A DNA stretch of 64,000 nucleotides. Origin: a virus. The notes below the pieces were generated by a model. The model was not told the DNA's origin and made no database searches. It saw only the letters and a program-made list of their open reading frames with translations. Position numbers and translations under genes: made by a program. Shown in pieces: positions 50,109 to 50,678 of this stretch. Position 1 is the first letter of the stretch. The number at the start of each line of letters is the position of its first letter. The stretch lies in UHGV virus genome UHGV-1366990. One strand, 5' to 3'.

Positions 50109-50678
50109 TTATTTTAACACTTCTAACTTCACAACACGACGCAGAAGGTAAACATATTCGCCAGCAGCTTCATGCGTCATATAATGGGTAGAAGGTGTGG
50201 AATGAGTGTTCTGGGTTTCTTTTAATCCAACGCGTTCAGCCCAACCATTAATAGAGTTCCCATAGAAACCGATAATCGCGCCAAAATAAATGCGCCCGCT
50301 TTCTGGCTCTAAAACGTAGTTGACAGTGAAGCAAATGTCAGAACGAATAGACTCCAGTTTCATACCAACACGACCTTCAGAGAATTCGTTACGAACATAT
50401 AAATGACGGAAGCGATCGCGCCGTGCTTGTGATGATTCTTCCAATTCTTGTCGAAGTGAAGAAGTTATGTCAATATTAAATGAAAATGTTGGATTTCGTA
50501 AATCAGAACGGGCCAACTCTAACGCAGATTCAATAACGCGACGGAAATTGATACTTTTACCTGTCAGGCGTTTCACTTCATCGGTGATTGTTTCAAAAGG
50601 GATTTTCGGGGCGCGTTCCCCTTCGTATTTTGCTAACAAAGGAATAATGTGTTTCATGATTGCTGTGTTAATGTGCAT
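50109..50678 (-). CDS. hypothetical protein (orphan gene between tRNA region and baseplate module)
   Basis: 189-aa ORF; SD-like GAGG upstream; no recognisable motif. Palindromic motifs lie on both sides. Confidence 0.55.
   Translation of the reverse strand: MHINTAIMKHIIPLLAKYEGERAPKIPFETITDEVKRLTGKSINFRRVIESALELARSDLRNPTFSFNIDITSSLRQELEESSQARRDRFRHLYVRNEFSEGRVGMKLESIRSDICFTVNYVLEPESGRIYFGAIIGFYGNSINGWAERVGLKETQNTHSTPSTHYMTHEAAGEYVYLLRRVVKLEVLK

Follow-up and report, generated by a model that had tools for sequence, protein, structure and literature searches.

We analysed the gene at positions 50109-50678 (minus strand) of a 64,000-nucleotide stretch of viral DNA from the UHGV virus genome UHGV-1366990, together with its surroundings. 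The whole stretch is called the window here. The gene and its protein are both named X, the promoter-like site upstream of X is called P_X and the promoter-like site after its stop codon P2. In a nucleotide search the window locus was 98.8% identical to Escherichia phage PC3, with AV101, A221 and RPN242 as relatives, and it matched 247 Ackermannviridae records in total. The structural genes to the right of X are 94-99% identical to those of the Agtrevirus ChubbyThor. Thus the window stems from an E. coli Agtrevirus of the Ackermannviridae.

X lies between a divergent gene for a gp6-like baseplate wedge protein, which starts at 51044 on the plus strand and in which gp6 domains are recognised, and a small open reading frame (ORF) of 48 amino acids (aa), which is followed by tRNAs, a pyridoxal phosphate (PLP)-dependent enzyme and the DNA polymerase. 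This order was the same in all loci fetched, including the metagenomic locus L003, whose PLP enzyme is 69% identical, and the metagenomic locus L009, where X is only 24% identical. The tRNA cluster beyond X and the small ORF always includes tRNA-Met, even in L009 and L003 with an X identity of 24-32%. X is the first gene of a leftward non-structural transcription block, divergent from the late baseplate genes.

X is a real protein that evolves under purifying selection, with a ratio of nonsynonymous to synonymous substitution rates of 0.16 against Det7 and 0.20 against Magnus. The 189 aa ORF named in the original prediction was confirmed, with an ATG start codon and a GAGG Shine-Dalgarno motif. 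In the same prediction X was called an orphan, which is not the case: it matches the phrog_3788 profile over its full length (E-value 4.6e-100, residues 1-189 on positions 1-190 of 190), and homologues were found by tblastn in 282 phage records of Kuttervirus, Agtrevirus, Limestonevirus, Taipeivirus and Miltonvirus, all of them hypothetical or unannotated. X corresponds to gp202 of Det7 (96% identical), ORF165 of LIMEstone1 and gp027 of phiMAM1, which are all hypothetical proteins. In a large protein collection the homologues form 31 clusters, and Vibrio phage VAP7 and Aeromonas phage phiA8-29 have structural homologues of X. When 1.84 billion representatives were searched exhaustively with a profile, only 14 proteins came up. 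Thirteen of them have about the same size as X; the 14th is a 1638 aa protein with a weak match (E-value 2.6e-4) and probably spurious. A broader second profile search added no relative with a name or a domain. Furthermore, Pfam, NCBIfam and PADLOC hold no family for X, as the lack of an assignable motif had suggested. The sole match was Radical_SAM with an E-value of 0.02 and 15.5 bits, where the cut-off is 29.5. Pfam found nothing consistent in 17 family members, the PADLOC defence-system models gave 0 families at an E-value of 1 or below, and sequence searches of the PDB with the single X sequence and with the profile gave chance-level matches only.

The X locus is occupied in every Ackermannviridae genus examined, always between gp6 and the tRNA cluster and with an identity down to 24%, so that the term accessory gene does not describe X. 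It diverges faster than its neighbours, with 65-68% identity where gp6 has 79-88%.

X was further described as bracketed by copies of a palindromic motif with private regulatory function. Copies were indeed found on both sides. P2 contains the motif TTTATTGAATAAA as an exact copy at 50093-50105, and P_X contains TTTATTGAATATA, with one mismatch to TTTATTGAATAAA, at 50732-50744. The start given for the second copy was right and its end at 50746 was not, as two flanking A's had been added. With up to two mismatches allowed, the window contains 15 occurrences of TTTATTGAATAAA where 1.23 are expected (about 12-fold), and none of 100 shuffled sequences reached this count. Read on the minus strand, the motif shows TTCAATAAA and, 9-11 nucleotides (nt) further on, a -10-like hexamer. 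The pattern TTCAAT[N14]TATAAT is present in the window in three exact copies and 15 copies with up to two mismatches, against 3.1 +/- 1.8 in Markov-1 simulations. Together with CTAAATAcCcc it is quoted as one of two regulatory motifs of this (Viunalikevirus-type) phage group (PMC7283392). The intergenic copies are co-oriented with the following gene or tRNA, among them an HU-like gene, small ORFs near the DNA polymerase and rIIA, and tRNA-Asn, and the genes behind the sites are non-structural. In the late structural block from 51 to 64 kb no intergenic copy was found, and CTAAATA(cccc) is present there instead.

The idea of the 13-mer as a functional palindrome was rejected after site-by-site comparison, in which one half only is conserved. 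Across the sites this is TTCAATAAA with a hexamer 12-14 nt downstream, while the left half reads GTTC, TTCC, TTGA or TATA. True palindromic operators, or bidirectional terminators that insulate X, would agree with the fact that TTTATTGAATAAA is a perfect palindrome around its central base and that the AATAAA part at 32283, 34978 and 40084 serves as the A-tract of a strong hairpin followed by a U-tract. However, the sites beside X fold no better than shuffled sequences (z -0.9) and every site is oriented as the gene that follows it, which makes this explanation highly unlikely. Because the TTCAATAAA half is conserved and the sites are co-oriented, we regard them as directional promoter-like sites and not as symmetric operators. 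The 13-mers thus appear to be the promoter motif of the phage family seen from the wrong strand, with about a dozen copies in the window. Hence there is no palindromic bracket around X, as the -10-like hexamer lies on one side only, facing the downstream gene. The sites are not private either, since the motif is family-wide and the copy past the stop codon belongs to the next transcription unit.

P_X matches the family motif exactly. Its predicted transcription start is at about 50708, which gives a 5' untranslated region (UTR) of about 30 nt containing the GAGG, and 36 nt separate the end of the -10 element from the ATG of X. The site is kept at the orthologous position in SFP10, Det7, ChubbyThor and Magnus (Taipeivirus), and in phiMAM1 (Miltonvirus) as ATCAAT-N14-TATTAT, so that in these five phages the distance from (T/A)TCAAT-N14-TAT(A/T)AT to the X homologue downstream is at most about 100 nt. 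In LIMEstone1 an additional ORF is inserted before X, with the less strict version TTCAAT-N15-TATGTT upstream of it, and no clean copy of P_X was seen in L003. P2 is followed by GGAGG and the ATG of the 48 aa ORF. A site after the stop codon of X is kept in SFP10, Magnus, LIMEstone1 (GTCAAT), phiMAM1 (ATCAAT...TATAGT) and L003, and the counterpart in L009 is GTCAAT-N14-TATAGT. The family pattern after the stop codon is (T/G/A)TCAAT-N12/14-TA(A/T)A(G/T)T. In five genera both sites beside X recur at the orthologous positions. The P2 variant, conserved in six lineages, would behave like a promoter despite missing the strict pattern.

P_X and P2 are thereby best described as two putative co-directional promoters, P_X for X and P2 for the next gene and the tRNA region. 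No hairpin was found at either of them, and read-through from P_X is therefore expected. Transcripts from P_X would run into the gene of the 48 aa membrane peptide and on into the tRNA and non-coding region, and P2 would add to them. The position of X had been called isolated; there is no terminator hairpin between X and the downstream sequence, and X is the head of a long leftward unit rather than an insulated island.

With the -10 element at -12 to -7, the TTCAAT box falls at about -32 to -27. This would be too near the -10 element for a normal sigma-70 -35 contact, and host RNA polymerase therefore probably reads these promoters via the -10 element and an extra contact at -30. In T4, middle promoters combine a good -10 element with a MotA box centred near -30, which replaces the -35 hexamer, and they drive pre-replicative genes. 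The sites in the window share with these MotA-dependent promoters the -10 element and a box near -30, and they also serve tRNA genes. The box itself differs, TTCAAT instead of TGCTT, and no homologue of MotA or AsiA is reported in these phages (PMC3184105). According to this 2011 paper on phage CBA120, ViI-like phages are without MotA, AsiA, Alt and ModA, and their early promoters could not be identified.

Besides its promoter-like site, X is marked by an exchange of alleles between genera. Clean comparisons for this are those of Det7 with SFP10 and of the window with Det7 or ChubbyThor. In Det7 and SFP10, both Kuttervirus, gp6 has 100% amino acid identity and X 65%. The window and ChubbyThor, both Agtrevirus, have a gp6 identity of 97% and an X identity of 69%, whereas between the window and Det7 the identity is 79% for gp6 and 96% for X. 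The X of SFP10 is nearest to the alleles of ChubbyThor and LIMEstone1 with 76-78% identity, and X and the adjacent gp6 differ in their phylogeny. The boundaries of the exchange are sharp. Det7 and SFP10 are 98-100% identical per 50 nt in both flanks, for more than 1 kb towards gp6 and for about 1 kb away from it, and they drop to 52-84% from 111 nt before the ATG of X to 16 nt past its stop codon. Mapped to the window, these boundaries enclose P_X and the coding sequence of X (Table 1).

The segment 50100-51047 of the window is Det7-like (Table 1) and has 50-94% identity per 50 nt to ChubbyThor, mostly 50-82%. From 51048 to about 55230 the relation is reversed, with 94-99% identity to ChubbyThor and about 70% to Det7. 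We therefore conclude that the allele in the window is of Kuttervirus type and its backbone that of an Agtrevirus. The segments flanking the exchanged unit, a 250-nt intergenic element and the segment of P2 and the small ORF, are 91-100% identical across genera, compared to about 60-79% for the neighbouring ORFs. P_X and X appear to form an allelic cassette that recombines between genera at these highly conserved flanks, and this arrangement appears to be new. The candidate case of SFP10 as a swapped allele in a window-like background was dropped, as SFP10 differs from the window throughout.

Table 1. Features at the X locus and further promoter-like sites in the window (a dot stands for features given without a strand).
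Feature	Position	Strand	Description
Coding sequence of X, 189 aa, phrog_3788	50109..50678	-	ATG start; GAGG Shine-Dalgarno motif 7 nt before the ATG
P_X, putative promoter	50715..50740	-	TTCAAT 50740-50735, 14-nt spacer, TATAAT 50720-50715; exact match to the family motif
P2, putative promoter variant	50078..50101	-	TTCAAT 50101-50096, 12-nt spacer, TAAAGT 50083-50078; 8 nt past the stop codon of X
Small ORF, 48 aa, MFYMMLLLILLIGITCSLLGLPD...	49906..50052	-	N-terminal transmembrane segment; preceded by GGAGG
Apparent exchangeable cassette, P_X and coding sequence of X	~50093..50789	.	Det7/SFP10 replacement boundaries mapped to the window
Kuttervirus-type patch	50100..51047	.	86-100% identity to Det7 per 50 nt (94-97% per 200 nt)
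Conserved non-coding element	50776..51030	.	Between the divergent gp6-like gene and P_X; 91-98% identity to SFP10
Late-promoter-type motif CTAAATA	50997..51003	+	Upstream of the gp6-like gene; equivalent annotated as putative late promoter in LIMEstone1
Promoter-like site	48258	-	TTCAAT-N13-TATAGT, directly upstream of tRNA-Asn
Promoter-like site	2628	+	TTCAAT-N14-TAT(A/T)AT before a small ORF
Promoter-like site	40084	-	TTCAAT-N14-TAT(A/T)AT before a small ORF
Promoter-like site	34978	-	TTCAAT-N14-TAT(A/T)AT before a small ORF
Promoter-like site	32283	-	TTCAAT-N14-TAT(A/T)AT before a small ORF

Structure prediction, suggested earlier as a way to check X, gave a confident model for which there is no match among the solved folds of the PDB. 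The AlphaFold2 model, built from 31 sequences, has a predicted local distance difference test score of 91.3 and a predicted template modelling score of 0.88. In the model, residues 1-80 form an N-terminal alpha/beta part and residues 84-178 a C-terminal part with the order alpha-beta-beta-beta-alpha-beta. A Foldseek search of the model against the PDB returned nothing at an E-value below 0.001. Invariant across the family are P13, R103, Y139, W146, T164 and H165, and N68 and S163 are nearly so; the invariant residues are polar or aromatic. The closer relatives have the motifs SSQARRDRFRHL, FSFNI, GFYGxSINGW and PSTHY in common, of which SSQARRDRFRHL is an arginine-rich conserved helix. Of the 17 family members examined, 16 have an isoelectric point of 7.8-9.8, so the proteins are mildly basic. 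These features fit a binding pocket combined with a basic helix and do not point to a particular ligand. Two known enzyme types were considered and rejected. The topology may fit a PD-(D/E)XK nuclease, yet the family has no invariant acidic residue or lysine, and the strands 115-123 and 129-137 carry T118, N120, F132 and A134 where the PD-(D/E)XK residues are expected. A 2H phosphoesterase was discarded because STHY is unlike H-x-T/S-x and no such fold was matched.

The architecture of the X locus and its evolutionary behaviour are well supported. For the role of X we propose that it is probably a cytoplasmic, pre-replicative protein with a conserved polar pocket of N68, R103, Y139, W146 and S163-T164-H165 and the arginine-rich helix SSQARRDRFRHL, which would act on the host rather than in virion assembly. 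The fast divergence and the exchange of cassettes fit a role in host interaction. Architecture, evolution and proposed role taken together form an account that we consider probable on balance, if only slightly so. Binding of X to nucleic acid or a host factor via this pocket and helix, with a role in the takeover of the host or in counter-defence, is in itself at best a tentative proposal. Several points weigh against the account. Counter-defence genes tend to be patchy in their distribution, and the universal presence of X is unusual for them. P2 does not meet the strict motif, with its 12-nt spacer and a -10 element, TAAAGT, that agrees with TATAAT in four of six positions. Moreover, no study of transcription starts, time courses or transcriptomes of Ackermannviridae was found in the searchable literature, so that the terms early and promoter rest on sequence, position and conservation. 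Finally, X is missing from the annotated core-genome table of PMC10892097, which is apparently limited to proteins with an assigned function.

X adjoins the gp6-like gene and wedge genes, and it could for that reason be taken for a structural or assembly protein of the baseplate module. This is exceedingly unlikely. The record of LIMEstone1 marks the neighbours of X, but not X itself, as confirmed structural proteins. In phiMAM1 X is not annotated as a virion protein, and the text on the virion mass spectrometry of Sajous1 does not mention X among the hypothetical proteins that it names. There is also no CTAAATA late motif upstream of X. The view that X is not a core structural gene was therefore borne out by the fact that the virion proteomes checked do not list X and by its own promoter-like site of a non-late type. 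More weight has to be given to the original view of X as an accessory anti-defence or takeover ORFan that is gained or lost and has private palindromes. It agrees with the non-late promoter-like site, with the identity of 65-68% in X where gp6 has 79-88%, with the sharply bounded exchange of alleles across genera and with the lack of an assigned family. Even so we find it rather doubtful, since all 282 matching Ackermannviridae records contain X, without exception at the same locus, the exchange is a replacement by homologous alleles and not a gain or loss, and the motifs are a genome-wide promoter class of which the second copy belongs to the next gene. What reasonably survives of the original view is that X would be a non-structural gene with its own promoter, possibly directed at the host.

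X could also act on phage RNA, by processing, stabilising or regulating the adjacent tRNA cluster and the long non-coding region. The order of X, small ORF and tRNA cluster is invariant even in L009 and L003, there is no terminator between X and the tRNA and non-coding region, the protein is mildly basic with an arginine-rich helix, and a phosphate or nucleotide pocket could be built from the conserved His, Thr, Ser, Arg, Tyr and Asn residues. However, the searches showed no likeness of X to an RNA-processing family or fold, and nearly all genes are syntenic throughout the family, which makes adjacency weak evidence. In addition, the cassette exchange leaves the RNA region untouched, and we judge an RNA role unlikely. 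Still less likely is that X itself is the factor that reads the TTCAAT box at -30, as an analogue of MotA or as part of a sigma-appropriation system. For ViI-like phages, MotA and AsiA are reported to be lacking and the control of early and middle genes to be unknown (PMC3184105), the TTCAAT box sits where the MotA box would be, and X is as family-wide as the motif and comes first in its block.

Returning to the host-directed role that we propose, a more far-reaching form of it is that P_X and X are a polymorphic host-interaction locus present in every Ackermannviridae genome, with alleles that recombine between genera, and that X is a family-specific effector with a previously undescribed fold. 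This form is doubtful. Recombination would occur at the upstream 250-nt element and at the downstream TTCAAT promoter, and X could target either a defence of the host or its transcription machinery. X may, for example, tell thymine-containing host DNA from hypermodified phage DNA. An analogy for this is the Alc protein of T4, which discriminates host from phage DNA. If this form is true, the allele type of X would help to set the strains that a phage can exploit, independently of the tailspikes. An effect of the allele type on host exploitation would matter when biocontrol phages of the Ackermannviridae are designed. The breakpoints of X are base-pair-sharp and adjoin the tailspike region that is engineered for host range. 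The locus further offers two conserved test promoters, with spacers of 14 nt and 12 nt, for the study of early and middle transcription in ViI-like phages, and a confidently modelled protein that is restricted to the family and universal in the genera examined. Already known are the promoter motif, which is published, and X as a widespread conserved hypothetical protein in the databases. Both regulatory motifs, TTCAAT[N14]TATAAT as well as CTAAATAcCcc, were reportedly defined in the 2012 paper on the genus Viunalikevirus (Arch Virol).

The X cassette can be compared to the promoter-early stem-loop (PeSL) elements, which flank ORFans of T4-type phages and mediate their replacement (PMC2839356, Arbiol et al. 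2010). As in PeSL-ORFan cassettes, X has repeated promoter elements of the early type on either side and is replaced between genomes that are otherwise nearly identical, and its conserved regulatory flanks are the likely crossover sites. The same promoter class overlaps terminator hairpins elsewhere in the window, as in the common PeSL subclasses. There are also clear differences. P_X has TTCAAT at 14 nt and not the sigma-70 -35 element TTGACA at about 17 nt, and neither copy beside X has a stem-loop. The upstream promoter of X lies inside the variable segment and not at its edge. Moreover, the X locus is always filled by a homologue, which is allele replacement, and not by unrelated ORFans that come and go.

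The hairpins elsewhere in the window overlap TTCAAT-N14-TAT(A/T)AT sites at 34928-34984, 32232-32289 and 40035-40090, all on the minus strand. The folding energy is -26.5 kcal/mol (z -6.5) for the hairpin of the site at 34978 and -24.2 kcal/mol (z -5.2) for that at 32283, and the hairpin at 40084 is weaker with -18.8 kcal/mol. The -10 hexamer lies in or next to the hairpin loop, and a U-tract comes after two of the three hairpins. By analogy, these candidate composite elements of a terminator and a promoter between genes resemble the PeSL of T4-type phages.

The small ORF downstream of X is annotated as a coding sequence in SFP10, Det7, Magnus and ChubbyThor, and a hydrophobic N-terminus is found in Kuttervirus, Taipeivirus, Miltonvirus (phiMAM1) and L003. 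In most lineages X is followed by a small ORF, and the two may constitute a two-gene module. In Kuttervirus, Taipeivirus and Miltonvirus a transmembrane segment stands at the start of the small ORF, whereas in L007, L008 and L009, the three relatives at the greatest distance, it is basic, with the common motif A(Q/K)(K/R)(I/V)L(S/A)x(L/M)SR(G/T)x(R/K)V.

The non-coding element between gp6 and P_X is flanked by ORFs that are 58-79% identical to those of SFP10, and its core can be aligned across five genera. It may be a regulatory site at the DNA level. As a structured RNA it found no support, with an RNAalifold covariation term of +0.52 and a folding z-score of -0.98. The element contains a small hairpin with one compensatory change (GCCC..GGGC vs GCCT..AGGC), and it includes CAGCCatggaGGCTG followed by a T-rich run. 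On the other side of X, about 300 nt of non-coding sequence past the small ORF (49455-49760, minus strand) are 94-100% identical to both Det7 and ChubbyThor. This stretch folds somewhat better than shuffled sequences (z -2.9) and contains tRNA-like fragments, and Rfam gave no family beyond the three tRNAs. A further site, ATCAAT-N14-TATAGT at 49420 on the minus strand, is kept in Det7, ChubbyThor, Magnus, LIMEstone1 and phiMAM1, and neither in Det7 nor in ChubbyThor is an ORF annotated directly after it.

Further along the block, the homologue of PLP-dependent enzymes is a protein of 397 aa (45249-46442, minus strand), which matches the Pfam family PALP with an E-value of 1.7e-07, below the Pfam cut-off. 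It is probably the PLP enzyme of the thymidine hypermodification pathway described for ViI-like phages. It is 69% identical in L003, where X is about 32% identical, and is hence far more constrained than X. In L009 a 598 aa protein with sigma-70 region 2 and region 4 (4704-6500) lies between the PLP enzyme and the DNA polymerase, and the window has no counterpart at the equivalent position.

The late motif CTAAATAcccc forms the 5' arm of an inverted repeat at 54883 and 61041 on the plus strand and at 45242 on the minus strand. Its 3' arm, which reads GGGGTATTT or GGGGTAT, is found just ahead of the start codon of the gene that follows. In front of the tailspike gene at 61069, for example, the repeat reads CTAAATACCCCAT...ATGGGGTATTT. 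This inverted repeat looks like a promoter-linked hairpin in the 5' UTR.

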